Of a stretch of 64,000 nt of DNA, positions 32,977 through 49,141 are shown in pieces; within the stretch, counting starts at the first letter, position 1, and every line of letters starts with the position of its first letter. The position numbers and the translations under genes are program-made. The notes under the pieces were generated by a model, which saw only the letters and a list, made by a program, of their open reading frames with translations, ran no database searches and had not been told where the DNA came from. Source of the stretch: a virus (Duplodnaviria > Heunggongvirae > Uroviricota > Caudoviricetes). The stretch spans positions 240,642 to 304,641 of IMG/VR virus record IMGVR_UViG_3300012943_000028; one strand, 5' to 3'.

Positions 32977-33012
32977 GCAAAACTAAGGGCACCTAACCTG
33001 CGCTAGGTGCCC
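32977..33012 (-). terminator. intrinsic terminator (minus strand)
   Basis: Hairpin GGGCACCTA/TAGGTGCCC followed on the minus strand by TTAGTTTTGCC; lies after gene 33053..33361. Confidence 0.45.
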
Positions 33013-33052
33013 TGTTCAACCTGAAAAATACAGGTTAAATCGACTTCTTGAC

Positions 33053-33361
33053 TTAGGCGGCGAGGCGCTTGTTCAGAAGCTCAGCAACGGCCTGGAAGCC
33101 TTCGCTGTACGTGTCGACGGTGCGAGCAACGAACTCGTTGCTGATGACGGCGCCGTTGGCGGTCACAACGAACGATGGGCGGATCGTCTTGCGGCCGGCC
33201 TTGAACTTGCCCGTGAAGGCGAGTGAGCCGTTGGCAGCCTGGCGGTCGGTCGTGACGTCGTTGAGGCCAGCTGCGAGAAGGGCCTTGTAAGCCTTCGAGC
33301 GCTGTGCAGTTGCGATTGACTTGGACATGAGAGTACTCCTATCTGATTTCTTATTCATCAA
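33053..33361 (-). CDS. hypothetical protein (weak HU/IHF-like resemblance)
   Basis: ~100 aa; the FTGKFKAGRKTIRP segment loosely resembles the HU beta-arm GFGTFKVNHRAER. Not conclusive. Confidence 0.4.
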   Translation of the reverse strand: MMNKKSDRSTLMSKSIATAQRSKAYKALLAAGLNDVTTDRQAANGSLAFTGKFKAGRKTIRPSFVVTANGAVISNEFVARTVDTYSEGFQAVAELLNKRLAA

Positions 33362-33406
33362 ACGATCGAGTCAGCTTAGGACCAACTCGTTTTGAAGCAA
33401 CATGCT

Positions 33407-33583
33407 TCAAATATGGTTACGGTCTGGGCCGGTGAGGGTGATATCCATACCACCGGCTTTTGCGGCGGCGATCAAGTCCTGAAGGGCTTCCATCGTGAAG
33501 GTCATAGTGCACATGAACGTTGGAACATCTACCTTCACTGGCATGATGTACTCGCCGTCATTGTGCTTGATCCTGATTTCCAT
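33407..33583 (-). CDS. small protein (~58 aa)
   Basis: MEIRIKHNDGEY...; its ATG overlaps the TAA of mazG (TAATG). The longer ORF in the track has an abnormal N-terminal extension. Confidence 0.35.
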   Translation of the reverse strand: MEIRIKHNDGEYIMPVKVDVPTFMCTMTFTMEALQDLIAAAKAGGMDITLTGPDRNHI

Positions 33584-33987
33584 TAGAAGAGCCTTGCGAT
33601 GGTGCCAACGTTGTCGGCATGCTGTGGACCAACCCAGCCTTCCGGCTTGATGAGGTCTGGCAGACCGAGCGGGTTTGGACGTTCCTTCTTGATTCCACGC
33701 TCCTTGGCCATGTTTGCCCTGTGAACACGGTTCCAAGCTTCCTGCGAGTCTACGTCGAAGGCGTCGAGAGTGCCAATCGCAACGACGCAAAGGTCGATCA
33801 TGGCATCAACGATGTCTTCAGCAGACTCAGCCGTCTTAGCTTCATCAAGCTCTTCCTGAAGGAACTTCAGGCGGAACTCAAGGAAGGCAGCGAGCTTCTC
33901 TTTCGGCAGCTCACGAATTACCTCACGAACACCAAACTTGGTGTGGAGGTCATGAATGTCGTCGATCCAAAATGTCTTATTTGACAT
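33583..33987 (-). CDS. mazG: MazG-like nucleoside triphosphate pyrophosphohydrolase
   Basis: E..E..D...DIVDAMIDLCVVAIGT matches the MazG/dUTPase-like all-alpha NTP-PPase core. Confidence 0.7.
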   Translation of the reverse strand: MSNKTFWIDDIHDLHTKFGVREVIRELPKEKLAAFLEFRLKFLQEELDEAKTAESAEDIVDAMIDLCVVAIGTLDAFDVDSQEAWNRVHRANMAKERGIKKERPNPLGLPDLIKPEGWVGPQHADNVGTIARLF

Positions 33988-34069
33988 GCGGTGTTCTTCT
34001 TCTTGTTGTGCATGTATTTAGCGCGGCTCGGACCCGAGCCGGATCACGGTCAAATCAACGTAGAAACAA

Positions 34070-34756
34070 TCACCAATCTTCAACTCCAAACAGGTATCCC
34101 TTCTCACGAACGACCTCAACGTCAGCCAAGATCTGAACGAGGTTCTGCGCAGGGTCAACATCACCCTTCAGCGTGCGGTCCCACACACACTTGTAGTGCC
34201 ACTGAGTTTCAGGACCGAGCATGCTCACGAAGCGGTTGTTGTAGTTGCGAACTACGCTGAGCACTGTGTCAGTGTGCTCACCTTGGAGAGTGGTGCTGTT
34301 GAGAAGCTCCATCTGCTTGATGGCCTTCAAAACGTCCGCCTCATAGCGCTTCTTGAAGCGTTCAATGCGAACTTCCTGTGGAACATCGACGAAGTACTTC
34401 AGCCACAGCGCACCAACGTCCAGCGCTGGCTTTGCGTAGTGCTCGATTCCTTCTGGCTCGACAACCAAGAACGCAAGACCCATGTCTAGCTTCTTCTTGA
34501 ACTCTTCCTTGGTAACGCCGTAGCGGAATCCACGGAAGGTCATGAGCTCGGCGAAGCCATCTGCTGCCTCAATCGCTCTCGACTCCTCATCGCTGATGAA
34601 GAAGTAGTCTACGCCGTCTACCTCACCATCACGCTTTGGGCGGGTGGTGGTTGAGACGAAACATGGAAGCTTTGCCACATCTCGAATGTAGCTGAGGAGA
34701 TAGCTCTTACCTGAGCAGGTAGGAGATGTGAAGGTGATCAGGACGGGCTTTGACAT
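34070..34756 (-). CDS. guanylate-kinase-like nucleoside monophosphate kinase
   Basis: [11 protein letters not shown] P-loop and [21 protein letters not shown] mirror the Gmk GPSGAGKST and [21 protein letters not shown] motifs. Confidence 0.7.
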   Translation of the reverse strand: [228 protein letters not shown]

Positions 34757-35238
34757 AGCTTTGGCGTCTTCTTGATGAGCAGCGCTACGACCTGGTCGTG
34801 CAAGCGCTGCGTGGACATGACTCTCTTCTCGAACTCTTCTGGGGTCAGCGATACAACCGTCGTCGGCCCCATGTTGATCCAGTCGAACTTGCCATCCTTA
34901 CCCTCAACGACGGTCGTGTAGTGTGCGTCATGCTCGTTGATAGAGTGGTAGAGGATGAAAGCACCACCTGAGCTGACATGCTTCTTGAGCTGGTCGAGGT
35001 GGACTACTGGGATGGCCTTCGTCTTCAGCCGACCTCGGCTCATCCTGTTGAGGGCACGCCGAAGGTCCCACTGGTGGGTACCAGAGAAGTCCTCGTCATG
35101 CTTGTAGCGAGCCATATTCTTTATGTACTCGATGGACGAATCGTACGTCGCCCTGAGCCCAGCCCACTTGAGGATGTTCAGGATGGCAACAGGCCCACAG
35201 TCACTCTGCGTTCTTTGTCTTGTGTAGCGGGGCTTCAT
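34738..35238 (-). CDS. papain-like cysteine peptidase (C39-like) candidate
   Basis: QSDCGPVAILNILKWAG resembles the C39 QxxxxDCGxAxL catalytic Cys region; downstream HYTTVV fits the His motif. Confidence 0.5.
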   Translation of the reverse strand: MKPRYTRQRTQSDCGPVAILNILKWAGLRATYDSSIEYIKNMARYKHDEDFSGTHQWDLRRALNRMSRGRLKTKAIPVVHLDQLKKHVSSGGAFILYHSINEHDAHYTTVVEGKDGKFDWINMGPTTVVSLTPEEFEKRVMSTQRLHDQVVALLIKKTPKLCQSPS

Positions 35239-35534
35239 GCTTGATCGGTTGAAAGAGCGGAATTTAGAAATTCATCAAGGTCTGCCTGTGCAGGCAGCCA
35301 CGACTTGTCTGTTTTTATTGAGCGTGCCCATTGAACACGCATGAACATATTGTAACACACTCTGAAAATCTGTTCGTCCTTGATGCTGCGTGGCATCAAG
35401 GCTAGCACCTCTTCAGGGTGAATTGGCAGCCAGCTGTTGTCCTTTCGAAACTTGCGCAGGACCTTCAAATTTTCAAGGGTCTCTGCGCAGGCATCGATCT
35501 CAGCTTGCGACAGCCTGCTGTTCCTCTTCTCCAT
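35235..35534 (-). CDS. hypothetical protein (~99 aa)
   Basis: ORF trimmed to the internal Met MEKRNSRLSQ; the upstream extension has an abnormal composition. Confidence 0.4.
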   Translation of the reverse strand: MEKRNSRLSQAEIDACAETLENLKVLRKFRKDNSWLPIHPEEVLALMPRSIKDEQIFRVCYNMFMRVQWARSIKTDKSWLPAQADLDEFLNSALSTDQA

Positions 35535-36534
35535 TGCGCAAGAACCTCTTGGCTGCGGCGAGAGAGCTGCCGACGGCCTGGTGCATGTCGATGTAGACGT
35601 ACTGCCCACAGCGACCGATGAATGTCATCTTCGGCGTATCGATGGCGGCGTACTTCTTGTACGTCTCACGATTCTTTCCGTCGACGTCCTTGACTGGGTA
35701 GTACCGCTCCATGTTGTTGTAGCGGTAGTCGCATGGCTCTTCGAGCGTCAGCGTTGTGATGCTGTCGTTCTGACCGTGTACTGGGTAGTTCTTCCACTCG
35801 GTGATGCGGGTGTGTGGGCCATCATGAGTGAAGTTGACGACTGGGACAGGCAGAATCTTCGACATTGGGAGGTCGAAGGTCGTGAACTTGATTGAGCGGT
35901 ACGGCAGCTCACCGAAGCAGAAGTCGTGGTACTCGTCGATCGGCATCGAGTTGAAGATGTGATCAAACATGCCCTCGAAAATCTTGCTGAACGTGCAGCC
36001 GGTCTTGACGAAGATGTTCTCGTGCTTCAGCATCGCCTCAACCATGGCAGTGTAGCCATTGGTTGGCATTCCCTGGTATGGGTCGTTCGGGAAGTAGAAC
36101 TCGTTGTCGTCATCACGGATCGGCACGCGCTTCATGATTGATGGGTCGAGCCGCTCGAGCGGCATGCCCCACATCTTGAGGGTGTACGGCTTGAAGAAGA
36201 TGTCGAGGACGTTCTCCTCACCTACCATCGCCTTCGTTTCACGGTTGACCGGCAGCGTAGCGTAGCGGCCATCGGCCAGCAGCGCCTTCACCTTGTGCTT
36301 GTATGGAGTCCACTCGGTGAAACGAGACAGGAAGTTCCAGACCTCTTCATTGGCCGTGTGGAAGATGTGCGAGCCATACTTGTGAACACGGATGCCGTGC
36401 TCGTTGGTGTAGTCATAGGCGTTGCCTGCGATATGACCACGCTTGTCGATGACGGTGATGTCGTGTCCAGCTTCTGCCAGCACGCGAGCGACGGTTGCGC
36501 CGGCAAGGCCGGCACCCACTACAAGTATCTTCAT
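35500..36534 (-). CDS. glf: UDP-galactopyranose mutase
   Basis: MKILVVGAGLAGATVARVLAEAGHDITVIDKRGHIAGNAYDY...GIRVHKYGSHIFHT is near-canonical for Glf (FAD-binding GxGxxG then HIGGN then HKYGPHIFHT). Confidence 0.85.
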   Translation of the reverse strand: MKILVVGAGLAGATVARVLAEAGHDITVIDKRGHIAGNAYDYTNEHGIRVHKYGSHIFHTANEEVWNFLSRFTEWTPYKHKVKALLADGRYATLPVNRETKAMVGEENVLDIFFKPYTLKMWGMPLERLDPSIMKRVPIRDDDNEFYFPNDPYQGMPTNGYTAMVEAMLKHENIFVKTGCTFSKIFEGMFDHIFNSMPIDEYHDFCFGELPYRSIKFTTFDLPMSKILPVPVVNFTHDGPHTRITEWKNYPVHGQNDSITTLTLEEPCDYRYNNMERYYPVKDVDGKNRETYKKYAAIDTPKMTFIGRCGQYVYIDMHQAVGSSLAAAKRFLRNGEEEQQAVAS

Positions 36535-36719
36535 TTGAGCACCATGATCATGTCGTAGATGATAGCGACGTCAGTAAAATTGTATGAACCCTTCTGCAGC
36601 ACCGCCTCTTTGGCCCGCGCAAAGATCGCCTCATCGATAGTCCCATGCTGTGACATGATAATTTCTCTGGCAGTTTCAGTTGTCAGCGCAACTGCAAGCT
36701 CGTGTTCAACGTCGATCAT
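36531..36719 (-). CDS. hypothetical small protein
   Basis: 62-aa ORF. Confidence 0.35.
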   Translation of the reverse strand: MIDVEHELAVALTTETAREIIMSQHGTIDEAIFARAKEAVLQKGSYNFTDVAIIYDMIMVLK

Positions 36720-37885
36720 TTGACTGCCTTTAGCACGGCCTCGATCTCGCCGATCTGAATGAGCTTGTCGAGTGGGTGGATGCGATACAGTGCCTGCCTC
36801 TGCAGGGTGGCGATGTACTCAAGCTCAGTGGTGGCAGCTGTTGTGATGTCGGCTGCCGTTAGGTCGAGGAACGGGAAGTCGCTTCCGTAGTAAACAGCGA
36901 GCTCCTTCTTGTCACCAATGAGGATGCTGCCAGCGTCTGCGCACTGCAGCGGGCGTGCTCGCCACCAGCCGGAACCAGCGTGCTCATAACCAGGCATCAA
37001 GCACGCCCAATCACGGTTGATGACCTTGACCATCTCATCTTCGGTGAGGCGCTTCTGCGTCTCCGCCTTTGACCCGTAGAGGTCGACAGGCCAGTCAAGG
37101 ATTGTTCCTTCTTCATCATTCTTCGGGTTGCCAGTGTAGCCCTGCTTCTTGAGCCACTTCTGTGTCTTCGACTGCACGAGGCTGGCAAAGTTGAAGCGCT
37201 TCTCTTTACTCGGTAGGTCTCCAGCCTTCTCAAAGAGGTTGTCAAGAGATGGGTTCCACGTCGGGTCCTCTGCGCCCTCATGACGAATGTCATACCACGT
37301 GCGGTTGCGGTGGTATGGGTTCGGGTTGTAAACGAACAGCCGATCCCGCGGGTAGTCGATCTTGTCGAACAGCAGGTGAGGTCCGAAGTTCTCCGGATCA
37401 TTGAGGTGCTCAGTGCGGAAGGCGCTGATGAGCATGCGGTTCTTCTTCGCAGTGATCACCTTGATGGCGCTGATGAACTGCGTCATGTATGGGTTGAGGT
37501 CTTCCTCGGTCTTCTTGTTGACCCCGAGAATAAAGTCGGCTGACAGCTCGCTCCAATCCTCGCACTTGGCGACGCCCTTGAAAAGGTCTGGCACCTGCCA
37601 ATCGTCGAAGGCGAGGATGCAGTCTGGGCGCTGTGAGATGGCCCACAGTCCCTCGAACACTGTGGTGGCAACTAACTGGCGCGGGCCGGCGATGAAGACG
37701 ATGACCTCATCATATCCGCTGAGGTCCTCGCCAAGTGATACTTGACGCTGATCAACCTCGTAGCCCATTGCCGTAAGGCAGTTGAAGAGCGAGTAGTGAG
37801 ATGGTACCACCTTCAGCTGCTGACGAAGGTAGAACTTGCGGGTACACTGGTTCTTGTTGAAGCCAGTGATCAGAATTCTTTTCAT
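36716..37885 (-). CDS. T4 beta-glucosyltransferase-like DNA glycosyltransferase (GT-B fold), tentative
   Basis: N-terminus MKRILITGFNKNQ...VPSHYSLFNCLTAMGYEVD parallels T4 BGT MKIAIINMGNNV...VPSSETIYLFKVISEMGLNVD. C-terminal ILIGDKK aligns with BGT LIIGDKN. Confidence 0.55.
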   Translation of the reverse strand: MKRILITGFNKNQCTRKFYLRQQLKVVPSHYSLFNCLTAMGYEVDQRQVSLGEDLSGYDEVIVFIAGPRQLVATTVFEGLWAISQRPDCILAFDDWQVPDLFKGVAKCEDWSELSADFILGVNKKTEEDLNPYMTQFISAIKVITAKKNRMLISAFRTEHLNDPENFGPHLLFDKIDYPRDRLFVYNPNPYHRNRTWYDIRHEGAEDPTWNPSLDNLFEKAGDLPSKEKRFNFASLVQSKTQKWLKKQGYTGNPKNDEEGTILDWPVDLYGSKAETQKRLTEDEMVKVINRDWACLMPGYEHAGSGWWRARPLQCADAGSILIGDKKELAVYYGSDFPFLDLTAADITTAATTELEYIATLQRQALYRIHPLDKLIQIGEIEAVLKAVK

Positions 37886-37937
37886 GTGTTCTCCAAAATC
37901 CGGGGTCGGGCGTATTTACCGTGCCTTCGACCGCACT

Positions 37938-38240
37938 TCAACCGCCTGCGTTGTTGCTGCCCTTTCCAGAGCTCAGCGATCTTGCTGTTTCACGCGCCTT
38001 TTCTTCGGCATCAGAGATGGCGCTTTGAAGCTGACGGTAGAACATGGTGAGCTCGAAGGAGCCTGGAACTCTGCCCTTCCCTGCTGCCTCAAGACCACCG
38101 CAGAACTGAATCATTGCCTGCAGGCCGTCGAGGTTCGACTGCGTGATCCACACTGGAACCCTAACGCTGTCGTCATGGTTTGGGTGCCTGTCGCAGATCG
38201 ACAGACGAGCAAGGTGGATAGGACGATCGTTGAAGCTCAT
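37938..38240 (-). CDS. hypothetical protein
   Basis: 100-aa ORF. Confidence 0.4.
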   Translation of the reverse strand: MSFNDRPIHLARLSICDRHPNHDDSVRVPVWITQSNLDGLQAMIQFCGGLEAAGKGRVPGSFELTMFYRQLQSAISDAEEKARETARSLSSGKGSNNAGG

Positions 38241-38449
38241 GGTGAATCTCCAAGCTTTGCTCGCTCTTCACGGAGTTCGGCGAGCTTTGCATCGTTGTTA
38301 GCTGTCAGCGCTGCGATCTCACGATCGAGCTTATGGCGTCGAGCTTCTTTGTACACGAGTGATTGTGCTTCGTGGTAGAGCGCATGCTCTGCATCAGTCA
38401 TCCAGCCAGAGTTGATGATGCAAAGTGCCTGTGTAAGGGTCAAGCTCAT
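38237..38449 (-). CDS. hypothetical protein
   Basis: 70-aa ORF. Confidence 0.4.
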   Translation of the reverse strand: MSLTLTQALCIINSGWMTDAEHALYHEAQSLVYKEARRHKLDREIAALTANNDAKLAELREERAKLGDSP

Positions 38450-39054
38450 GATAGCGCTGCCTCGAGGATGGCTTCCTTCGGCAGGAAACCGCCAGTGGTT
38501 GGGTCAGTGACAACGATCTCGCGCTTGTCCTTGATGTTCGAGCGGTCAAATGCTGCGATGAACCGCGCCTGTTCTTCTTGACGCTTCTCGATGGGACCAA
38601 GCGACTGCCCATCGTCAACGAAGTGCTTTGCTGACGCAAAGTCCTCGAGCAGAAGTATGAGGCGCAGGCTCGGGTGCTCGTTCAACCCTGTGAGAAGCTC
38701 CTGCTTGTAGACGTAGTCGCCGCTGTAACCACGGTACATTGGAGAGTAGACGACCTCGCCGATGTGCCAGCGGTCAAAGATGATTCGTGAGTTGGACTTT
38801 GCCATCAGCATGGAGTTGCGGAAACTTTCCTGCTGGTAGAAGAACGCTGAGCGGTGCTGCTCTGGAACGAGCTCGATACCGCCGTCGCCCTGGTATGCAG
38901 GCTTCTTGGCCGCTTCTTCGTACAGCTTGAGCTTCTGCGGCTTTGCAAAGTGGACCACCTGATAGAAGCCGAAGGTGTCCATGATTCCCTGGATGAGCGT
39001 GCTCTTGCCGAGACGGTCAAGCCCCTCAATGCCGTAGACTGTGCATGGCTTCAT
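38446..39054 (-). CDS. deoxynucleoside monophosphate kinase (thymidylate-kinase family)
   Basis: VYGIEGLDRLGKSTLIQ matches the Tmk P-loop (ieGiDGaGKsT); ~200 aa. Confidence 0.7.
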   Translation of the reverse strand: MKPCTVYGIEGLDRLGKSTLIQGIMDTFGFYQVVHFAKPQKLKLYEEAAKKPAYQGDGGIELVPEQHRSAFFYQQESFRNSMLMAKSNSRIIFDRWHIGEVVYSPMYRGYSGDYVYKQELLTGLNEHPSLRLILLLEDFASAKHFVDDGQSLGPIEKRQEEQARFIAAFDRSNIKDKREIVVTDPTTGGFLPKEAILEAALS

Positions 39055-39189
39055 TTCATTTCCTCAGGTGTGACCAAATAAGAACAGTCGCTGCGATGAT
39101 CGCCGCTACAGTTCTGATGATGCTCATGATGAACTCCGCTTTCTTGCGGCGTTCCTTGAATTCTGGTTGCTCCATCGTATCACCAACCT

Positions 39190-39519
39190 CTAATCAGATA
39201 CAACCTTCCCGTTCGACCTGACAATATCAGGAATTGAGAAGAACACCGGTATGCCAAGCTCCTTGGCACGTGCGACCTCTGCATCGGCGCCCGACGATTC
39301 ACCAGGAAGGCGCAGGACGCAGTCACAGTCCTCGATCCACGCCATGCACCACTTCAGCCAGTCCGAGTATTCACGCTTGTGAACTTGGTCATGGAAGTGA
39401 ACGAGCAGCGGCATGAACGGAATATAACCGAGGTTCATGAGAACATTGGCCGCATCCATCTGGCGCCTGACGTTACCGTCAACGTCTCCGCTGTAGCCGC
39501 TTGAGATGAAGACCTTCAC
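39190..39519 (-). CDS. nucleoside 2-deoxyribosyltransferase-like protein (DUF4406-like), tentative
   Basis: MKVFISSGYSGD...YIPFMPLL layout resembles the small Rossmann-like deoxyribosyltransferase-like family. Weak. Confidence 0.45.
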   Translation of the reverse strand: MKVFISSGYSGDVDGNVRRQMDAANVLMNLGYIPFMPLLVHFHDQVHKREYSDWLKWCMAWIEDCDCVLRLPGESSGADAEVARAKELGIPVFFSIPDIVRSNGKVVSD

Positions 39520-39857
39520 TCTTCATCCTTCTTCTGAGAGTCAAGAAGGCGCTGGTATTCATCGGCCGTGAGGAGCAGACGTTCACGATAGCACTCAACG
39601 AGGGTGCTGATGTCATGCCCCCACATGTTGTGGTCCATCGAGCTCTTGCCAACTTCAACGAGAGTTGGCTCATCCATGATCATGCGAATCTCGTAGACGG
39701 TGTCAGGCTTGAGAAAGCTTTCACCCTTCTTCGGAGCTGTGCCGATGATCATGTCGACTCGACCTTTGCCTTTAGGGCCGGTACCACGCGTGACGAACCT
39801 CGTCACCAGCGGAAAGGCCTGGCTCATTGGTATCTTCTTCGGTGTCTGTGCTTTCAT
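39516..39857 (-). CDS. hypothetical protein
   Basis: 113 aa from ATG 39857 (MKAQTPKK); the track start at 39860 is TTG. Confidence 0.45.
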   Translation of the reverse strand: MKAQTPKKIPMSQAFPLVTRFVTRGTGPKGKGRVDMIIGTAPKKGESFLKPDTVYEIRMIMDEPTLVEVGKSSMDHNMWGHDISTLVECYRERLLLTADEYQRLLDSQKKDEE

Positions 39858-40024
39858 CAAACTCTCTCCTTTTCAACGATGTAGCCAGCTCCCATGCAAG
39901 AACCGCAGTGCATGTATGGATCAACGCATGGGATCATGCGCGTACCGCTTCCGTTGCAGGAGTTGCACTGTCTCCTGCTTTCACGGTACTGAACTCGCTT
40001 CTTGGCCTTCTTACGCTTTGCCAT
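39857..40024 (-). CDS. small zinc-ribbon protein (55 aa; not in ORF track because <60 aa)
   Basis: MAKRKKAKKRVQYRESRRQCNSCNGSGTRMIPCVDPYMHCGSCMGAGYIVEKERV has four CxxC-type pairs. TGATG coupling to the downstream gene. Fills an otherwise empty gap. Confidence 0.4.
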   Translation of the reverse strand: MAKRKKAKKRVQYRESRRQCNSCNGSGTRMIPCVDPYMHCGSCMGAGYIVEKERV

Positions 40025-40514
40025 GAAGCGCCTTAGCGCGAGCCTGTCTCACGCTCACTTCATTTGCCACGGGCCAAGGCACAAACGGGCCGACATTGCT
40101 GCCGAGACGGATCATCTCACGGATCATCGTCGATGAGATGAACGTGTGATCAGACTTTGCCGTAAGAAACACCGTCTCTATTGTGGGGTCAAGGTGGCGG
40201 TTGAAGTGGGCGATCTGTAGCTCGTACTCGAAGTCTGACATTGCACGCAGGCCACGAACCAGCACGGTAGCCTTGTGTGCCTTAGCGTAATGAACCGTGA
40301 AGCCATCGTAGTGACTGACCTCAATGTTCGGAACATCCTTGAACGTCTCAACGATGAACTTGGCTCGTTCTGCTGGAGTAAACATTGTGCTCTTTGCGGA
40401 TGTAATCGGCAAAGCAACGATCACCTTTTCAAACATTGATGCTGCACGCAGTGCAATGTCAGCGTGACCGATGGTGATCGGGTCGAAGGTACCAGCGTAG
40501 ACTGCGATTGTCAT
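40011..40514 (-). CDS. coaD: phosphopantetheine adenylyltransferase (PPAT/CoaD)
   Basis: MTIAVYAGTFDPITIGHADIA matches the CoaD N-terminus (AVYPGSFDPITNGHLDI, T/HxGH nucleotidyltransferase motif). ORF trimmed to the internal Met. Confidence 0.8.
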   Translation of the reverse strand: MTIAVYAGTFDPITIGHADIALRAASMFEKVIVALPITSAKSTMFTPAERAKFIVETFKDVPNIEVSHYDGFTVHYAKAHKATVLVRGLRAMSDFEYELQIAHFNRHLDPTIETVFLTAKSDHTFISSTMIREMIRLGSNVGPFVPWPVANEVSVRQARAKALHGKA

Positions 40515-42259
40515 AGGAACTTTGTGAACCTCGTGTTGAACTCGTCCTTCCATACGTTGAAGCTGCCAGTCCACAGGCGTTGAAGGTTGGCGTCCATGCA
40601 GTACGTGACAGCATGATCGTCGGCGCTGCGGACTGATCGGCCTGCACCCTGCACGGCCTTCATCACGGTGATGATGTTGTACAGGGACGGGTGCTTGTCG
40701 AGAATGAACTTCATGCGCTTGTCGGCGAGTGATGGGAACGGAGCCTTCACTAGAATCTGCCAACGTGACAGATCGCCGGGAAGGTCGATGCCCTCGAACA
40801 TTGACGGCGAGATGAGAACGGCTGGCCCGCCCTGGTAAGCCTTGAAGGCGACGAGGATGTTCTCAAGCTTCTCACCCTGGCGGTGCTCGAAGAGCTTGTA
40901 GCCCTTGATGCCGACGAGCTCTGCGACGAGCTCGTTCTGCAGCTTGAAGCTTGGTGTCAACACAATGCCACGCTCGCCCTTCTCAACGTGGTGCTTCACC
41001 ACCTTTGCCACGTTCTTGCGCAGTTGCGTGACCACCTTCGGGTCCTGCAGCGACTTGTAGCCGAGCGAGAGAGGGTCGAAGAACACAACCTCCTTGTTCT
41101 CCTTCGGAAAGGTAGGTGGCAGCTTGATGAACTTCGTCTGCATTGGGTCGAGGTTCAGGGTCTTCACCATGAACTCTTCAGATACCGTTGCCGACATGAA
41201 GAGATTGTAGTCGGCTGACTGCAGTGCGTCGATCATCGTGCCAACGAAGATTGGCTTCACAGAGATGGCACGCTCTTCTTCCTTGTACTCAAAGACGTGA
41301 TCGTAACCATAGTTGAAGAAGTCGTCGATCTTGCAGCAGAGCCCTTCGTACTTCTTTGCAAAGCGGTTCAGCTTCGTGTACTTGCCCATGTTGCCTGAGC
41401 GCAAGGCGATGTCAGCTTCTGCCTGTCCAGCCTGCTTGGCATAGGTGTACACCTCCATGAGAGCACGAAGGTAGGCCTGGTAGTTGCCAAGATCGCTTGT
41501 TCCGTTGCCATCGTGGATTTTTCCTGGGGTACCAACATCCTTTGCCAGCGACTGAAGCAGCTTGGCGATCTTGACGTCTGTCAGGCCGACAGAGGTGTTG
41601 ATCTCTTCGGCGTACTGCTGCGCCCGCTTTTGTGAGAAGTAGATGGCGTTGTGCTCGCTGAAGAGGTCATTGACGAGGTGGGCTTCGTCCCACACAACAA
41701 GGTCACGGTTCTCAAACTTGCCCGTGTACATGCGGTCAATGAAGTAGTACGAGTAGTTCGTCGTGATGTGACGTACCAGGTTCTTCTTCTGCTTGATCTT
41801 CAGGTAGTCGCAGCCATTGCAGTGCTGCTGGAGAACGGCCTCAAACGAGGAGTCCTTCACCATCGTGTACCAGGCACATGACTCGGCGGTAGCTGGTTCG
41901 GCCGGCGTGCTGAGGGCATCGCAGTCGTAGTTGCCTGCGCCCTTGATCATCACGTACTTACCGTCCTTCTCAAGCTCACGGAATGTGGCGCCGTACTGCT
42001 TTGCAAGAACGTTGGTTGCGGTCAGTGAGATGGAGGACTTGATCGTGCTGGCACTTCCGCCACGGGCGGCCGTCAGCGCCTCGGCTGCGGCGGCGCCGAT
42101 GATGGACTTACCTGTACCAGTAGAAGCATTGAGGATGACGTTCTTGGCCTTGTCGTCGATGAAAGCGGTGATGATTCGATCGACGGCTTCCTTCTGGCCT
42201 GGGCGTGGCGCAAAACCTAGGCGAGCAAACGCTGCGTCAATTTGTTCTTCGTACTTCAT
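40511..42259 (-). CDS. dinG: DinG/Rad3-family ATP-dependent helicase (iron-sulfur type)
   Basis: RPGQKEAV...ASTGTGKS Walker A, a four-Cys cluster (CAWY..CNGCDY), VVWDEAHLVND DEAH box, and the C-terminal LISPSMFEGIDLPGD...VKAPFP typical of DinG. Confidence 0.85.
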   Translation of the reverse strand: MKYEEQIDAAFARLGFAPRPGQKEAVDRIITAFIDDKAKNVILNASTGTGKSIIGAAAAEALTAARGGSASTIKSSISLTATNVLAKQYGATFRELEKDGKYVMIKGAGNYDCDALSTPAEPATAESCAWYTMVKDSSFEAVLQQHCNGCDYLKIKQKKNLVRHITTNYSYYFIDRMYTGKFENRDLVVWDEAHLVNDLFSEHNAIYFSQKRAQQYAEEINTSVGLTDVKIAKLLQSLAKDVGTPGKIHDGNGTSDLGNYQAYLRALMEVYTYAKQAGQAEADIALRSGNMGKYTKLNRFAKKYEGLCCKIDDFFNYGYDHVFEYKEEERAISVKPIFVGTMIDALQSADYNLFMSATVSEEFMVKTLNLDPMQTKFIKLPPTFPKENKEVVFFDPLSLGYKSLQDPKVVTQLRKNVAKVVKHHVEKGERGIVLTPSFKLQNELVAELVGIKGYKLFEHRQGEKLENILVAFKAYQGGPAVLISPSMFEGIDLPGDLSRWQILVKAPFPSLADKRMKFILDKHPSLYNIITVMKAVQGAGRSVRSADDHAVTYCMDANLQRLWTGSFNVWKDEFNTRFTKFL

Positions 42260-42443
42260 TCTCGTAGTGTGCCTTGTTGAACTTCACGCCGTCGTTGCAC
42301 TCTTCGCAAATCCAGGCGTCCCAGAAGCCCTTGTTCTCGTTGTAGTCGCTTTCGTGTATGTCCCAACATAGTGAGATGCCGCAGCTATTGCAGATCGGCG
42401 TCACACCTTCATCCATCGTACCATGATGGATGTGAACACCCAT
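42237..42443 (-). CDS. small Cys-rich protein
   Basis: 68 aa with CNSCG...C...CEEC. Confidence 0.4.
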   Translation of the reverse strand: MGVHIHHGTMDEGVTPICNSCGISLCWDIHESDYNENKGFWDAWICEECNDGVKFNKAHYENEVRRTN

Positions 42444-42754
42444 CAGTCGGTTGACCAGCTGATCAGCAGATCGTACTCGTCTTGTGTCAGCGTGATGGAG
42501 TTCGTGTTCGGGTTCGTCACGGCGTGCAGCAGCACCCTGGCGATCTCGAGCGTACGATCAGCATGAAGACCGGCGACCACGCGCTCGTCGATAGAGTGGT
42601 CGCTGTACTTGTACAGCCAGCGGCTGATGGCGCCCATCTTTGCAATGTCGGCATCGATCTCGTCGATGCGCTTCTTGCGCTCAGCCTTGATCGTCTCGAT
42701 GACCTTGTTGCAGATCAGCTGCCATTGGTGACGGTTGTCGAGCTCGATTTTCAT
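42443..42754 (-). CDS. hypothetical protein
   Basis: 103-aa ORF. Confidence 0.45.
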   Translation of the reverse strand: MKIELDNRHQWQLICNKVIETIKAERKKRIDEIDADIAKMGAISRWLYKYSDHSIDERVVAGLHADRTLEIARVLLHAVTNPNTNSITLTQDEYDLLISWSTD

Positions 42755-43149
42755 ACTGAGTCCTCGTCTCTTGCGTCTTTGGGGTGCATTGGGCCAGGCT
42801 TGCGATCGGTGTAGTACACATCGTCTTCAACAGCAAAGATGTTGGCACCGCTCATGCATGGAACGTGCGCCTCAACTGCGGTCAAGGCAGCTCGGCGCGT
42901 GCAGGGATAGGTGCTGTGCTCAGTGTCGTTCTTGACAAGCGTGCACGCAGTCGCTTCACCAGCCTTCGCTCTGTCAAGCTTCGACAGTAGCGTCGTGATG
43001 TTGCGACGAGAGATGTAGATCGTGTCTGCCTGTTGGTCTGGGTAATGATCACCCATGGCTGACTTCACGATGCGTGGGGCTGGGGCCTTGGCATTCAGGG
43101 CCGCAAGCAGCAGGCTGAGATCATTGCGAGTCAAGAAGAGTTGAATCAT
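42751..43149 (-). CDS. hypothetical protein
   Basis: ORF trimmed to the internal Met MIQLFLTRNDLSL. Confidence 0.4.
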   Translation of the reverse strand: MIQLFLTRNDLSLLLAALNAKAPAPRIVKSAMGDHYPDQQADTIYISRRNITTLLSKLDRAKAGEATACTLVKNDTEHSTYPCTRRAALTAVEAHVPCMSGANIFAVEDDVYYTDRKPGPMHPKDARDEDSV

Positions 43150-43218
43150 GGCTCTACCTAGGGGAACTGGTGGTCCATTGTAACACGGTGACAATCAGCA
43201 GTAAACCAACAACCTCGA

Positions 43219-43249
43219 GGCAAAAGAAGGGGGACCGAAGTCCCCCTTC
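43219..43249 (-). terminator. intrinsic terminator (minus strand)
   Basis: Perfect hairpin GAAGGGGGAC-cgaa-GTCCCCCTTC followed on the minus strand by TTTTGCC, 20 nt after the stop of the outer-membrane beta-barrel gene. Confidence 0.6.
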
Positions 43250-43271
43250 AACCTGCGAGCTTGCGTGAAGC

Positions 43272-43859
43272 TTAGAACTTGTACGCGAGCGATGCCACAA
43301 CACCATTGTACGTGGTGTTCGTCCAGGCCTTCTGACCACCAACCTTGCCAACGAGCTTTTCGTTGATGTTGATGTAGGCGCCCAGTGAAGCGTACTTGTC
43401 GCCTTCCTTCTCGAGGGAAGCGCTGTAGCCGCCGAAGAGCGTTACGTTCTTGATGAACGTTGGAACGCTGATTTCGCCGAAGGCTACGGTGTCGTCGGTG
43501 TGGTTTGCACCACGATCAACACCAGTCCAGTTCACACCACCAACGAGGGCGATCGAACCGAGCTTCAGACCATTGGCATAGCCTACCGAGTACGTGAGCT
43601 GATCTGCGCGGGCGCCACCGGCATACGTTGAAACGTTGCCAACAGAACCGAATGCCGAACCGAGCACGCCTGCATTCAGCTGCAGGCCGGCGAGACCGAC
43701 GTGGCTCGAGACCCATGGGGTTGAGCTGTCAGCACGACGCAGGTACGAATAGTCAACGGTGGCTTCGACTCCCTTCGAACCAACTGACGAGAGGTCAGCA
43801 GCCGCAGCAGCGCCTGCAAAGCCCAGCGTCAGAGCGAGGGCGAGTAGAATCTTCTTCAT
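43272..43859 (-). CDS. outer-membrane beta-barrel protein (OmpW/OmpX/Ail-like) with signal peptide
   Basis: MKKILLALALTLGFAGAAAA signal peptide, alternating amphipathic beta-strand pattern rich in Gly/Tyr/Ala, and the C-terminal ...LAYKF with terminal Phe typical of Gram-negative outer-membrane proteins. Confidence 0.65.
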   Translation of the reverse strand: MKKILLALALTLGFAGAAAAADLSSVGSKGVEATVDYSYLRRADSSTPWVSSHVGLAGLQLNAGVLGSAFGSVGNVSTYAGGARADQLTYSVGYANGLKLGSIALVGGVNWTGVDRGANHTDDTVAFGEISVPTFIKNVTLFGGYSASLEKEGDKYASLGAYININEKLVGKVGGQKAWTNTTYNGVVASLAYKF

Positions 43860-43911
43860 GCAATACTCCTTATGATTGAACAATTTCGATCATTGCTGAT
43901 CGACGGGGTAT

Positions 43912-44151
43912 TTACTGTGCGCAGGTTGCGTTCTTTTCAGACTCACGAGCGATTGAAAGTGATCGCTCTAGAATCTCTACAGAACCTGGCCAACGTCCAG
44001 CAAAAACTTCTTGTGCAACGACAGCATCCGTTTCTGCCGCTTCGAGGCGCATTAGCATCTCTTCAAACGCTTCTTTCGCCTCTGGTGTTTCGGGTTTGAG
44101 TGCCTTCGCCCAGCGATCTATCGCCGTACATGTCTCACACGTGCAGCTCAT
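43912..44151 (-). CDS. hypothetical small protein
   Basis: ORF trimmed to the internal Met MSCTCETC. Confidence 0.35.
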   Translation of the reverse strand: MSCTCETCTAIDRWAKALKPETPEAKEAFEEMLMRLEAAETDAVVAQEVFAGRWPGSVEILERSLSIARESEKNATCAQ

Positions 44152-44489
44152 GATTTTCTCCTGAGGTATGCCATCTTGTGTGGGCCTGCAGGCATGGCCT
44201 CGATTTCCCACGTAGCTTCCATCTCATCTAGCTGAGAGCGCCAGCACTTCAGCACCTCAACATCATTTGGTTTGCGATGGAAGAAGTAGAGCTCCATGTC
44301 ACCAACAGATGACTTGTAGTCTTCAATCCGTTTGGCGGCTGTCGCCTTAGCCTTCTCAACATCGCCATGATGTACGATGGTGTAGAACTCGACTGCCTGC
44401 TCAAAGGTCATCTCATGGTCAGCAAGATAGTCGCCGGTGCTCGGCGTGAGATTGCCAATCCAGGACTCGAAGGCGGTGATCAGCTTCAT
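44148..44489 (-). CDS. hypothetical protein
   Basis: ORF trimmed to the internal Met MKLITAFESW. Confidence 0.4.
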   Translation of the reverse strand: MKLITAFESWIGNLTPSTGDYLADHEMTFEQAVEFYTIVHHGDVEKAKATAAKRIEDYKSSVGDMELYFFHRKPNDVEVLKCWRSQLDEMEATWEIEAMPAGPHKMAYLRRKS

Positions 44490-45229
44490 GGCGTGTAGTT
44501 TGGGTCGACAAGCGTGTAATGACGAGCGTAGACGTGAAGCGATCCGGCGTTCCAGAAGATGTTGCCAACTGGAACGTCGAGGTCGGCTGCGAGCTTGGTT
44601 AGCACGTGGTGCTGCCATGCCCAATCATTCTTGTAACCGAACACCGCATCATTGCTGCGCATCTGAACGATGGCATGCAGCTCGCCGTTACGGATGAGGT
44701 ACTGCACGGCGTTCGTGCACATGAAGTCCGAACGACCATTCTTGTTGTAGTCCAGCCACATGGATGGGCGGGTGTAGATCATCATGGCTCGCCGAGACTC
44801 TGGGTTCTTGCGGAGCTCGATGGCACAGCGCGTGTACTGGCTGTCGTTGTCAATCAGCTGGCTGACGATGTCGTCGTAGTGCGTGAAACCGTTGGCGCTA
44901 GAGTAGATGCACCAGCCGTAGTTCGAGTTGATAAAGCCGTCCTTGTCGGCGACGGTCTTCCAAATCTGTGGTGGTCCGCCGGGGATGTCGTTGACGTTCA
45001 GCGACATTGAGTTGTACCATTCCTCTTCACGCTGCACGTAGTCTTGGTTGACTTCGCCGAAGATTGACGGCTCATCAGCGATGAAGGATGCATTGACGAT
45101 CTCAATCGTTGTAGCGCCGGTAAATCCTAGAAGGTTTGCCTCTCTGTTGACTGAGGTGAACTGCTTGTTGGCGAGTAACGCTTTGAAGAGGTTGCGCACG
45201 TCATTTGTCTTGAGGCTGAGTCCTAGCAT
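44486..45229 (-). CDS. thymidylate-synthase-family pyrimidine hydroxymethylase (dCMP hydroxymethylase-like)
   Basis: RRAMMIYTRP...FMCTNAVQY...QMRSNDAVFGYKND aligns with ThyA RRIIMSAWNP...PCHALFQFY...QRSCDVFLGLPFN. An Asp sits at the position of ThyA Asn177, the cytosine-versus-uracil discriminator. The N-terminal half is divergent. Confidence 0.75.
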   Translation of the reverse strand: MLGLSLKTNDVRNLFKALLANKQFTSVNREANLLGFTGATTIEIVNASFIADEPSIFGEVNQDYVQREEEWYNSMSLNVNDIPGGPPQIWKTVADKDGFINSNYGWCIYSSANGFTHYDDIVSQLIDNDSQYTRCAIELRKNPESRRAMMIYTRPSMWLDYNKNGRSDFMCTNAVQYLIRNGELHAIVQMRSNDAVFGYKNDWAWQHHVLTKLAADLDVPVGNIFWNAGSLHVYARHYTLVDPNYTP

Positions 45230-45877
45230 TTACTTTCTCACTTTCTGGTTGTATTTTTCGAAGAGAGTAACGAACTTGTTGATCGTGTCACGGTAGTCGT
45301 CAGCGTCGATGTAGAAGTTCTTCTTCAGGTATTCGTCAGGGCTCGTTGCGAGGTATGCGTGTGTTTCATCTGCAAACACGTTCTCACCGTAGCCCATCAT
45401 GTCAGAGAAGCGCTGGTTGAAGATCATCTGCAGCGCTGGGTCTATCTGATTTATCGCTTCCAGAACCTCATTTCGGTAGTCTTCATAGAGGAAGAACATC
45501 GCGTGAGCGATCTCATGATCAACGGCGTGGCTACCGCCTGACAGAGTGCCGATCACGTAGAATGGTCGGCTGTCAGTGTTGGCCTTGATCATTCTCAACA
45601 GGTCACGTTCAGGTTTTGTGATCGCTGTGTGGAGGTTGCGCCAGTTGTGGAAGACGTAGGACGGAAAGTTGAAGCCACTCCACGAATGGAAATAGTCAAA
45701 GTGCCCCTCATCGTTCGTGTACGCCTGCACGAACTCGAAGAAGTCGAACTTCTTACCACGAATGTTCTCGAACGGCGATTCGTAGAATTCCTGAATTCTA
45801 CAAAACGTGAGCACGAGTTCTTTCTGGGTATCTGCCTCGAAGTGCAGAATTTGGTCGGTGATCTTAGTGAGGTTCAT
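45230..45877 (-). CDS. hypothetical protein with HExxH motif
   Basis: 215 aa containing AVDHEIAHAMF (zincin-like HExxH). Confidence 0.45.
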   Translation of the reverse strand: MNLTKITDQILHFEADTQKELVLTFCRIQEFYESPFENIRGKKFDFFEFVQAYTNDEGHFDYFHSWSGFNFPSYVFHNWRNLHTAITKPERDLLRMIKANTDSRPFYVIGTLSGGSHAVDHEIAHAMFFLYEDYRNEVLEAINQIDPALQMIFNQRFSDMMGYGENVFADETHAYLATSPDEYLKKNFYIDADDYRDTINKFVTLFEKYNQKVRK

Positions 45878-45948
45878 TTGTGGTCGCCGTGAAGCGGCGA
45901 GGCTTATTCTAAGCCCTAATCATACCACAGTTGAGTGCGTAGAAAAAC

Positions 45949-46812
45949 TTACAGCTCTTCTGGGATTGGGAGCTTTGCTTTCTTCAACTCTGACCTGCTT
46001 GCACGCAGGATTTGATCTGCGTTCTTCAGGCCCTTGACGTGCTTGATGACGTCCTCAGCCGTGAGAAGGTCGCTAGGCTTAACGTCTGATCCGAAGATGT
46101 GGGCGGCAACCTTAGCTGGATCGCTAGTTGCATCTTCCTTGTCTGAAAACTCTGCGCTCTTGCCGATTGACTTGAGATGAGAGCGCAGCTCATCTGGTGT
46201 TGCTTTGATCAGCGTCTTGTTACCAGGCTTGGCATACTTGAACATGCGCTTCATGCCGTCAGCAAGCGTGATGGACTTAGATGCCCTTGCGATGGCCTTA
46301 CCGTCCTCATCACGGATAACAAAGTCTTCGCCAGGCTTTTGTGAGTGCGCAAGAGCCGTAAACAGAATGATGTTGCGCACCGCTCCAGGATATTTTGAGC
46401 CAGCACCGTGAGCTGAGTGGTAGATAAAGTTTGCCCAGTTCTTGTCCTTAACGTACATAAGGTCCACTTGAACCTTCTTACCGCCAACTGGAACGGCATA
46501 CGAACCGACCTTGGTGCCCGTGTTGTATGTGCCCTGATCACCGGTGGCTGCCATCATCTTCTTGTGCACGTCATCGGCATTTACCTCTTTGTATGGAAGT
46601 GCAATGTCGACATCGCCGCTGTCCTTCTTTTTGCCGGCAAGGGTAAGCCGTGTTGAACCTAGCAGTCCATTCTTGAGCTCTATGGATGGGATACCAATGG
46701 TCTTTGACACGAACTTGATTGCAGTGTCGACATCCTTCTGAGATGCACGTACAGTGTTGTACTTTGCCGTGGCGTGACCACCTTCTGTAAGGAATTGCTT
46801 GAACGAGACCAT
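45949..46812 (-). CDS. Pol-beta-superfamily nucleotidyltransferase-fold protein
   Basis: LLGSTRLTLAGKKKDSGDVDIALP fits hG[GS]-x9-13-DhD. ORF trimmed to the internal Met MVSFKQFL. Confidence 0.5.
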   Translation of the reverse strand: MVSFKQFLTEGGHATAKYNTVRASQKDVDTAIKFVSKTIGIPSIELKNGLLGSTRLTLAGKKKDSGDVDIALPYKEVNADDVHKKMMAATGDQGTYNTGTKVGSYAVPVGGKKVQVDLMYVKDKNWANFIYHSAHGAGSKYPGAVRNIILFTALAHSQKPGEDFVIRDEDGKAIARASKSITLADGMKRMFKYAKPGNKTLIKATPDELRSHLKSIGKSAEFSDKEDATSDPAKVAAHIFGSDVKPSDLLTAEDVIKHVKGLKNADQILRASRSELKKAKLPIPEEL

Positions 46813-49120: not shown

Positions 49121-49141
49121 TCAAAGAAGAGAGCGCATAGA

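Follow-up and report, generated by a model that had tools for sequence, protein, structure and literature searches.

Phages that decorate the cytosine of their DNA have been described in two forms that lie close to the locus considered here. In the T-even pathway, cytosine is modified at the mononucleotide level by the product of gene 42, and the polymer is then glycosylated by a GT-B enzyme that uses host UDP-glucose. In the 5-hydroxycytosine (5hoC) systems of phages RB69, DLP3 and RL38J1, an enzyme of the thymidylate synthase (TS) family annotated as a 'hydroxymethylase' hydroxylates C5 with a flavin, for which Asn at the position of Asp169 of the synthase ThyA (D169N) is diagnostic, and the sugars placed on 5hoC are the furanoses arabinofuranose (Araf) and galactofuranose (Galf) (Lee et al., NAR 2026, PMC13326640). 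RL38J1 encodes the UDP-galactopyranose mutase (UGM) Glf, and a UDP-Galf route has been proposed for it (PMC13326640). Aeromonas phage 25 has genes 42 and 56 and no glucosyltransferase (alpha-gt or beta-gt), and another modification of its DNA was left open (Petrov et al., 2010). The present locus lies in a 64-kb stretch of a viral metagenomic record (IMG/VR IMGVR_UViG_3300012943_000028, positions 240,642 to 304,641), hereafter the window. Its interval 33583..45229, within a long co-directional run of minus-strand genes, encodes a TS homolog, two nucleotide kinases, a MazG-type pyrophosphohydrolase, Glf and a putative glycosyltransferase, here called X (Table 1).

A reading made from the sequence alone, the original prediction, had proposed that cytosine is replaced by 5-hydroxymethylcytosine (hmC) and then glycosylated. 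This is supported by the gp42-type active-site signature of the TS homolog and by Glf and the adjacent GT-B-fold protein X, which are linked to an hmC-type TS; the glycosylation step is carried by these two genes, which the prediction had not located. All open reading frames (ORFs) that it had named were recovered on the minus strand where it had placed them. The model put forward here, a pre-replicative 5-hydroxymethyl-dCTP pathway followed by post-replicative glycosylation of DNA by X and Glf, is given a probability of about 0.6. Its base-modifying step appears to belong to a well-known family, its glycosylation module to none so far known.

The window is a segment of a ~358-kb jumbo-phage genome, since exact copies of X and of one further window protein sit on a metagenomic contig of 358,444 bp. 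Megablast of positions 33000..46000 against 50,697 phage records gave zero matches, and the source phage appears to have no close sequenced relative. Ralstonia phage RsoM2USA and Xanthomonas phages X1 and BUDD emerge from protein comparison as distant cultured relatives; topoisomerase II (6742..8694) is 55% identical to that of X1 and BUDD and 46% to that of the jumbo phages XacN1 and RsoM2USA. The homolog-bearing contigs and loci that were compared are numbered L010 to L057, where L016 is RsoM2USA and L017 has a length of 198 kb.

The TS homolog and its active site

The TS homolog belongs to Pfam PF00303 (E=4.9e-13) and to the PHROG family 'thymidylate synthase' (E=1.8e-46). Among all PDB sequences its best match is T4 deoxycytidylate hydroxymethylase (1b49/1b5d, E=1e-72, residues 34-243), followed at a distance by the best ThyA entry (9e-9), MilA (3e-5) and E. 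coli ThyA (~2e-4). By BLASTP it is 51% identical to T4 gp42 (NC_000866) over 249 columns (E=3.9e-88), in agreement with the resemblance to the T4 enzyme noticed earlier. The N-terminal half had also been called highly divergent, which is true against ThyA and untrue against T4 gp42, where the strong alignment of residues 34-243 is accompanied by one 15-aa insertion in the window protein; relatives have insertions of other lengths at this place.

The active site was compared in a MAFFT alignment with E. coli ThyA, Aeromonas gp42, RB69-like HX01 gp145, Morganella Rgz1 gp33 and Rhizobium RL38J1 gp216, in which the control on the ThyA reference was the numbering of its landmark residues alone (Cys146, Asn177, Asp169 and Leu143 fall where expected). 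Both motifs that the original prediction had reported, the catalytic Cys (FMCTNAV) and the RS-x-D segment, are located in the protein as SDFMCTNAVQY (catalytic Cys171) and MRSNDAVFGYKND. Window residues E68, W90, D168, C171, D194, G198 and D202 correspond to ThyA positions 58, 80, 143, 146, 169, 173 and 177, and in T4 numbering Glu68, Asp168, Cys171 and Asp202 are E60, D145, C148 and D179. In ThyA numbering, which is used below, the signature E58/W80/D143/C146/D169/G173/D177 is the same in the window protein, T4 gp42 and Aeromonas gp42. The residue at the ThyA Asn177 discriminator is Asp202, as had been claimed, rather than Asn; Asp at this position selects dCMP over dUMP. An acidic residue at the Leu143 position admits water, giving a hydroxymethyl and not a methyl group (PMC13326640). 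The protein combines the TS fold and catalytic Cys with D177, an acidic residue 143 and the folate-type residues, and gp42 is its closest relative. These features strongly support a T4 gp42-type dCMP hydroxymethylase (EC 2.1.2.8) and place the protein firmly within the gp42 clade, and the phage is very likely able to make 5-hydroxymethyl-dCMP (hm-dCMP).

Two hydroxymethylase-type TS lineages share the locus upstream of the helicase gene, the T4-like one of ~247 amino acids (aa) and another of 325-357 aa with a C-terminal extension (L010 4926..5903, L012 2059..3075, L018 2345..3418). The window protein is 29-31% identical to the 325-338-aa members in L010 and L012, and residues E58, W80, D143, D169 and D177 are found in both lineages. 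This suggests that one lineage has been replaced by the other independently of the sugar cassette present. L010 has an additional, genuine ThyA (17785..18720), which is 51% identical to E. coli ThyA and carries N177 and L143.

X, Glf and the exchangeable slot

X is recognisable by fold only. Sequence searches of PDB, Pfam and NCBIfam returned nothing for it (Pfam was empty even at E<=1), and it has no sequence match to the PF09198 (T4 beta-glucosyltransferase) family: hhalign gave a probability of 0.2 to the beta-gt homolog of L013, and BLASTP found no match to T4 beta-gt. Its AlphaFold2 model (predicted local distance difference test score, pLDDT, 84.9) indicates two Rossmann-like domains with GT-B topology. 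In fold comparison the model scores 14.2 against T4 alpha-glucosyltransferase (1y6f) and 13.4 against the glycosyltransferase of phage HY126 (9iqz); SenB reaches 15.7 and PimA 15.5, which leaves only a small lead over ordinary GT-B enzymes. Residues T7, G8, E53, D54, Y58, D95, W96, G271, G304, W308, R309, R311, E328 and Q362 are invariant across 24 X-family sequences that are 23-86% identical; by analogy with other GT-B enzymes, they may form an acidic catalytic or acceptor site in the N-domain and a phosphate- and ribose-binding site in the C-domain. At least 647 relatives of X exist in public protein data. The original prediction had listed a putative DNA glycosyltransferase without coordinates, and X is the sole candidate found. 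Fold, position and co-occurrence together make it reasonably probable that X is a DNA hmC glycosyltransferase.

Glf has both the GLF domain and the N-terminal FAD-binding Rossmann domain of UGM enzymes. It matches the PDB UGM 3hdq at E=9.5e-69, aligned in two stretches, and the regions around the substrate-binding Arg and Tyr align with solved UGMs at the motif level only. Homologs occur in Tulanevirus, Erwinia phage FBB1, Phage C48C1 and Pootjesviridae, and the short form is common to Phage C48C1. Operon-like packing with 4-nt overlaps is seen both for X, a 62-aa ORF and Glf and for the Tmk-like gene with the 70-aa and 100-aa ORFs beside it. L010, L012 and L018 hold an ORF of 78-90 aa in place of the 62-aa ORF. 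The 166-aa ORF on the other side of Glf has a weak Peptidase_C39 match only, and L017 holds a 170-aa ORF at the corresponding position.

When IMG/VR was scanned with the alignment of X, 44 loci were obtained. Glf directly follows X in 41 of them, and of the three remaining contigs one stops 0.4 kb past X; loci with X and no Glf are rare (L056, L057). A TS homolog lies upstream of X in 34 loci, often 0.5-3 kb from the X-Glf pair, and every locus with appreciable upstream sequence has one except two, both of which are also without Glf. The linked TS homologs have the hmC-type signature throughout (34/34) and none is of the N169 type. A MazG homolog is found in half of the X-bearing loci (22/44). 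A second lineage is compact, its X being 42-47% identical, and has MazG, TS, an epimerase of the GalE-like type, X, Glf and a further GalE-like protein packed into a few kb; in one lineage TS, GalE-like epimerase, X and Glf span 1-3 kb. A GalE-like epimerase adjoins X in L012 and many other loci, and such neighbours would fit a supply line from UDP-glucose through UDP-galactopyranose to UDP-Galf.

The pair also occurs in cultured phages. X homologs are present in 25 GenBank phage records, and X lies no more than ~150 nt from Glf in 14 distinct genomes, namely Phage C48C1, 12 Aeromonas phages of the Tulanevirus type (one deposited as Stenotrophomonas phage IME13) and Erwinia phage FBB1. The Aeromonas Tulaneviruses (25, Aes508, phiAS4 and others) and FBB1 have an X 26-28% identical to that of the window, and they seem to carry one modification module in common with it. 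Phage 25, the member checked, encodes a gp42 that carries the full T4-type signature and is 52% identical to the window TS, together with Glf and X. These phages differ from the window phage in being T4-like Straboviridae, with the cassette beside motA and gene 52 and far from gene 42; in the literature searched, the DNA sugar of the Aeromonas Tulaneviruses and FBB1 has never been determined. In actinophage DSL-LC01 an X homolog, Glf, a 329-aa ORF and a gp56-like MazG lie inside the replication module. The 329-aa ORF, which is next to Glf, was considered as a TS homolog and ruled out, having no homology. Overall, the X-Glf pair is found inside the DNA-metabolism operons of five unrelated phage lineages.

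In the window, X and Glf occupy one position of a conserved locus, found in ~350-kb environmental jumbo phages, with the order ~290-aa protein, TS, small ORFs, 582-aa helicase, sometimes CoaD and a DUF4406 protein, Tmk-like kinase, glycosyltransferase cassette, Gmk-like kinase and MazG. Since this order recurs in at least eight divergent jumbo-phage contigs, with helicase identity down to 47%, the clustering is not due to chance; as the original prediction had remarked, it is unrelated to the order in T4. The closest sister, L017, keeps this order unchanged, with a TS of 247 aa and both X and Glf. By BLASTP, L013 and L014 have the most similar backbone (helicase 67-70%, TS 68-76%, and Ro60 78%, the last in L013 only; 56-76% over TS, helicase and kinases), whereas the cassette matches L010 and L012 (X 65-69% identical), though the helicase there is only 47% identical. 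These comparisons present the locus as a mosaic of backbone and cassette.

Sister jumbo phages L013, L014, L022 and RsoM2USA keep TS, helicase, Tmk-like kinase and a glycosyltransferase slot, with the Gmk-like kinase also present in L013 and L014. Their slot differs in holding, instead of X and Glf, a PF09198 protein 27% identical to T4 beta-gt (E=1e-34 to 1e-36), then one or more CofD-like genes, plus NTP_transf_3 in L013 and L014. X has no detectable sequence similarity to these PF09198 proteins and is therefore a non-orthologous occupant of the beta-gt slot. Judged from these genomes, the slot between the two kinases appears to behave as an exchangeable sugar cassette, and the beta-gt/CofD content of the sister slot points to cassette exchange and to a different adduct. 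The CofD-like protein has 610-650 aa, and the regions concerned are L013 14858..18942, L014 15412..20809, L022 16324..19935 and RsoM2USA 15545..18536. A CofC/CofD-like pair could serve to activate a phospho-acid or another non-sugar group and then transfer it, and the CofD-bearing sisters, including the cultured RsoM2USA, may have their hmC or glucosyl-hmC decorated with another adduct that has not been described.

The predicted pathway and its alternatives

The pathway would start with the gp42-type enzyme, which is strongly supported as the catalyst converting dCMP, methylene-tetrahydrofolate and water to hm-dCMP. The Tmk-like kinase, the Gmk-like kinase or both would phosphorylate hm-dCMP, host nucleoside diphosphate (NDP) kinase would complete hm-dCTP, and the phage polymerase would incorporate it. 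The MazG-type enzyme would remove dCTP, and dUTP with it, so that cytosine is excluded and dCMP is supplied. Phage Glf would convert host UDP-galactopyranose to UDP-Galf, and X would move the furanose onto the 5-hydroxymethyl group of hmC in DNA, giving galactofuranosyl-hmC; for both, the prediction draws on fold, position and co-occurrence. It is quite likely that hmC largely replaces cytosine in virion DNA, which depends on dCTP clearance and kinase specificity. A donor-modifying Glf encoded by the phage leads to the prediction of Galf and not glucose as the sugar, an identity that is somewhat favoured.

The supporting enzymes differ in how firmly they can be placed. The Tmk-like protein shows a P-loop (GLDRLGKS) and a DRW motif by eye, and its family matches identify it as a nucleoside monophosphate (NMP) kinase and apparently no Tmk orthologue, as it scores 22 bits with TIGR00041 against a threshold of 83.25. 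It is present at this position in every jumbo relative examined (56-62% identity to L010, L013 and L014; 35% to RsoM2USA gp6), and among GenBank phages it matches only RsoM2USA and one uncultured record, so it is confined to the jumbo lineage. The Tmk-family gene proposed earlier for hm-dCMP is present, and synteny is the ground for its role. The same applies to the guanylate-kinase homolog, likewise found as predicted, and both kinases are assigned to the hm-dCMP pathway by position. The MazG-type protein had been given the role of gp56, the dCTPase-dUTPase of T4; gene and family are confirmed, whereas similarity to T4 gp56 is missing, and the two share only the broad all-alpha MazG/PRA-PH superfamily. 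With RL38J1 gp218 it shares 36% identity (E=6e-24); in that phage gp218 is flanked by the 5-hydroxy-dCMP (5hodCMP) synthase (gp216) and the dNMP kinase (gp219), and a role in dCTP/dUTP clearance is plausible. Dihydrofolate reductase (DHFR), which had been counted in the hmC set, is a real gene that the hydroxymethylase does not need, because hydroxymethylation regenerates tetrahydrofolate and not dihydrofolate; DHFR more likely serves the folate pool or dTMP synthesis. The order Ro60-DHFR-...-TS recurs in L013.

Compared with the T-even pathway, the window shares an orthologue-grade gp42 enzyme with an identical active-site signature and the logic of modifying the mononucleotide before glycosylating the polymer with a GT-B enzyme. 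It differs in that no homolog of gp56, gp1, alpha-gt or beta-gt is found by sequence among the window proteins. Instead, the kinases are Tmk- and Gmk-like, the pyrophosphatase is of the DR2231/RL38J1 gp218 type, the transferase is from a GT-B family not yet classified, Glf is phage-encoded, and the backbone is that of a jumbo phage.

Several observations weigh against the proposed pathway. The Tmk-like protein reaches 24.0 bits with PF02223, under the gathering score of 27. BLASTP of the MazG-type protein against T4 gp56 gave E=0.15 over 32 residues, which is no similarity, and its nearest PDB entry is DR2231 (E=3e-6), a MazG-like enzyme that prefers dUTP. Glf is without ~40 helical-domain residues of solved UGMs and for this reason falls slightly under the equivalog cut-off of TIGR00031 (288.3 against 303.75 bits), and the Glf genes of Streptococcus prophages serve capsule synthesis. 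The 64-kb window itself showed no gp1-type dNMP kinase, no dCMP deaminase, no ThyA and no alc/denB analogue.

Alternatives for the chemistry at the base are decided largely by the active site. If the enzyme were a conventional thymidylate synthase or, like that of SPO1, a dUMP hydroxymethylase, the gene set would belong to general nucleotide metabolism or thymine replacement, and the PF00303 match, the label 'thymidylate synthase' in PHROG and many GenBank records, and the nearby DHFR gene would fit such a role. ThyA departs from the window signature at two positions, however, with L143 and N177 where the window enzyme has Asp; the enzyme lies far under every NCBIfam ThyA equivalog cut-off (best model 45.4 bits against 174.55), its PDB match to the T4 enzyme far exceeds that to E. 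coli ThyA, and the genuine ThyA of L010 is a separate gene besides, which leaves this explanation scarcely tenable. The second alternative is a flavin-dependent 5hodCMP synthase such as RB69 gp48, DLP3 gp80 or RL38J1 gp216, which would leave the sugar ether-linked to C5. The 5hoC systems also combine a TS-family enzyme, a Tmk-like 'nucleotide kinase' (in all three published clusters), a MazG-like protein, NDP-sugar enzymes and a GT-B transferase, and Glf takes part in the pathway to galactosyl-5hoC proposed for RL38J1 (PMC13326640). A distant X homolog, Rgz1 gp40, sits within an arabinosylation-type cluster, and it accounts for the only similarity found when the window proteins were compared by BLASTP with the kinases and transferases of RB69-like phages, Rgz1 and RL38J1. 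Nevertheless, the synthases of HX01, Rgz1 and RL38J1 depart from the window signature at four positions (F58, A80, N169 and V173), whereas the window TS keeps the folate-type E58 and W80, G173 and, as Asp194, D169. It is 18-24% identical to 5hodCMP synthases and 21% to ThyA, against 51-52% for T4 and Aeromonas gp42, and D169 is carried by all X/Glf-linked TS genes of IMG/VR. The 5hoC reading, which had arisen from the Glf link to RL38J1, was rejected on this active-site signature and is very improbable.

The main competing explanation accepts hmC in the DNA and gives X and Glf a non-DNA acceptor, such as glycans of the host envelope, proteins of the virion or a small molecule, with hmC left bare or modified by other genes, for example those of the cluster at 17-26 kb. 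Such a role for Glf is familiar from the capsule genes of prophages noted above; on the other side stand the placement of X-Glf inside DNA-metabolism operons of unrelated lineages, its use of the exact slot of the T4 beta-gt homolog of sister phages, the hmC-type TS linked to it in all 34 informative loci, and its presence in phage 25, which has gene 42 and no glucosyltransferase. With these taken together, a non-DNA acceptor is unlikely. It is also conceivable, if quite improbable, that X is an hmC glycosyltransferase with another donor (UDP-glucose, UDP-galactopyranose or UDP-arabinofuranose) and that Glf serves a second step or another interconversion. Donor specificity is not readable from the model, the short-form Glf is atypical, enzymes of the UGM family can also use UDP-arabinose or UDP-GalNAc, and the distant X homolog of Rgz1 lies in an arabinose cluster without Glf. 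X and Glf are, however, near-obligate neighbours with translational coupling, GalE-like epimerases are often part of the cassette, and X seldom occurs without Glf. The order of events proposed above, hm-dCTP synthesis and then furanosylation of DNA by X with UDP-Galf from Glf, is preferred over these alternatives.

Searches of the literature on galactofuranose or UDP-galactopyranose mutase with hmC, Aeromonas or jumbo phage found neither Galf-hmC nor a Glf-X DNA-modification module described. A wider reading can be offered tentatively, with somewhat less than even confidence. Glf-X would be a mobile furanosylation cassette making 5-(galactofuranosyloxymethyl)cytosine DNA, with X as founder of a new DNA-glycosyltransferase family. 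On the same tentative reading, the cassette would have spread among jumbo phages, a compact uncultivated IMG/VR lineage, T4-like Aeromonas and Erwinia phages and one actinophage, and at the jumbo locus the TS lineage (T4-type or 325-aa) and the cassette (X and Glf with or without GalE, or beta-gt and CofD) would be swapped independently of each other.

Base hypermodification sets which restriction, CRISPR and type IV defences attack a phage and which sequencing and engineering enzymes work on its DNA. If the proposed pathway is true, furanose sugars would be built on hmC as well as on 5hoC, the DNA glycosyltransferases would gain a new GT-B family, and the product, hexofuranose-decorated hmC, would be one for which the searched literature holds no description. 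It would also answer the question raised in 2010 of how hmC is decorated in phages such as Aeromonas phage 25 that bear gene 42 and are without glucosyltransferase genes; cultured carriers of the pair include Aeromonas phages 25, Aes508 and phiAS4 and Erwinia phage FBB1. A sequence rule from the 34 loci can be stated, in which a TS with E58, W80, D143, D169 and D177 beside X and Glf predicts glycosyl-hmC and N169 predicts 5hoC. The exchangeable cassette of the jumbo phages would mean that DNA glycan diversity can evolve through module swapping.

Neighbouring genes and other features of the window

Table 1. Features of the locus and of the second sugar-nucleotide-type cluster (window coordinates)
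Feature	Position	Strand	Length (aa)	Evidence or remark
MazG-type all-alpha NTP pyrophosphohydrolase, candidate dCTP/dUTP pyrophosphatase	33583..33987	-	134	PF01503 (PRA-PH) E=6e-9
Guanylate-kinase-family (Gmk-like) kinase	34070..34756	-	228	PF00625 E=2.5e-13; distal side of sugar cassette
Conserved ORF between Glf and Gmk-like kinase	34738..35238	-	166	40% identity to L014 165-aa ORF
UDP-galactopyranose mutase Glf, short form	35500..36534	-	344	PF03275 E=6e-52, PF13450 E=1.2e-19
Small ORF between X and Glf	36531..36719	-	62	4-nt overlap with both neighbours
X, GT-B-fold glycosyltransferase, candidate hmC (galacto)furanosyltransferase	36716..37885	-	389	Fold, position, co-occurrence
Tmk-like nucleoside-monophosphate kinase, candidate hm-dCMP kinase	38446..39054	-	202	PF02223 E=3.5e-5, PHROG 'thymidylate kinase' E=1.6e-8
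DUF4406/DUF7768 protein, nucleoside 2-deoxyribosyltransferase-like superfamily	39190..39519	-		Counterpart position in L013 holds Nuc_deoxyrib_tr protein
Superfamily-2 helicase, syntenic anchor	40511..42259	-	582	47-70% identity to relatives
Predicted T4 gp42-type dCMP hydroxymethylase	44486..45229	-	247	Pfam, PHROG, PDB, BLASTP, MAFFT signature
Conserved ~290-aa protein upstream of TS gene	45949..46938	-		42-55% identity to same-position ORFs in L010, L013, L014
Dihydrofolate reductase	53056..53595	-		PF00186 E=5.6e-40
Second sugar-nucleotide-type cluster	17058..25720, plus 15702..16505	-		GC ~50% vs 55-60% in flanks
Paralogous proteins with CxSGQxRT motif	17058..17834, 24848..25720	-		Second sugar cluster
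GatZ/KbaZ-like aldolase	17831..18868	-		Second sugar cluster
HAD phosphatase, KdsC-like by eye	18838..19299	-		DVDGVMTDG motif; second sugar cluster
Shikimate-dehydrogenase-like protein	19268..20134	-		Second sugar cluster
Bifunctional NTP_transf_3 + APH kinase	20082..21596	-	504	Second sugar cluster
Cupin mannose-6-P-isomerase-like protein	21593..22288	-		Second sugar cluster

Between the helicase and the Tmk-like kinase lie the DUF4406 protein and CoaD, a pantetheine-phosphate adenylyltransferase (40011..40514, minus strand; TIGR01510 179 bits against a cut-off of 103). The deoxyribosyltransferase-like fold of the former recalls MilB, a hydroxymethyl-CMP hydrolase that is the partner of the TS homolog MilA, and by this analogy a dNMP N-glycosidase acting in pool editing is conceivable. 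The conserved protein upstream of the TS gene is 329 aa long as annotated and probably starts at Met43; by eye, its GDVDIAL motif looks like that of Pol-beta-type nucleotidyltransferases. A reading of this protein as a radical-SAM enzyme, which had rested on a weak DUF512 match (E=0.002), was dropped, and with it the idea of an M6/ViI-type thymidine hypermodification pathway. A 215-aa ORF (45230..45877, minus strand) abuts the start of the hydroxymethylase gene and has a HEIAH (HExxH-like) motif; L017 holds a 214-aa ORF in its place, and no homolog was found in L010, L012, L013 or L014. Neither the 329-aa protein nor the 215-aa ORF has a family or PDB match.

The second sugar cluster, which also has two DUF6071 proteins and SGNH/GDSL-like proteins, may extend the DNA glycan further. 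Its 504-aa enzyme is 22.5% identical over the full length to Morganella phage Rgz1 gp39 (E=1.6e-8), whose ORF is about as long and stands where RB69 has its gp52:53-type gene. Bacterial homologs of the enzyme are ~40% identical, and in one relative, L021, it stands by itself near topoisomerase II.

Beyond DHFR, a Ro60/TROVE protein is encoded at 54627..56390 on the minus strand (vWA_Ro60 E=1e-52; 78% identity in L013), and an Rfam search beside its gene found no Y RNA or other family at E<=1. At higher coordinates lie genes of nucleotide-pool and nuclease type, namely Endonuclease_NS, a non-specific DNA/RNA endonuclease (58304..59062, plus strand; E=6e-38), an NT5C-type 5'-deoxynucleotidase (59992..60519, minus strand) and a NUDIX hydrolase (60848..61315, minus strand); L013 has NT5C and Endonuclease_NS homologs upstream of Ro60. 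A 139-aa release-factor protein with an RF-1 domain, ArfB/peptidyl-tRNA-hydrolase-like (61955..62374, minus strand), adjoins three tRNA genes (Val-GAC, Thr-GGT and Arg-CCG; 62890..63632, minus strand).

Further cargo on the minus strand comprises proteins with an acyl-carrier-protein-like motif (12854..13384), a weak HD-domain match (13381..13962) and a weak QueC-like PP-loop match (8906..9613), and a 408-aa SPFH/Band-7 protein (31337..32563); the likeness to an acyl-carrier-protein motif is one seen by eye in the N-terminal segment LGTDSLDTVELVMALEE. The minus-strand early block is interrupted, between the hydroxymethylase region and DHFR, by two plus-strand genes (46919..51148; 733 and 668 aa) with PHROG matches to head decoration/virion structural protein and weak lectin/glucanase Pfam matches.

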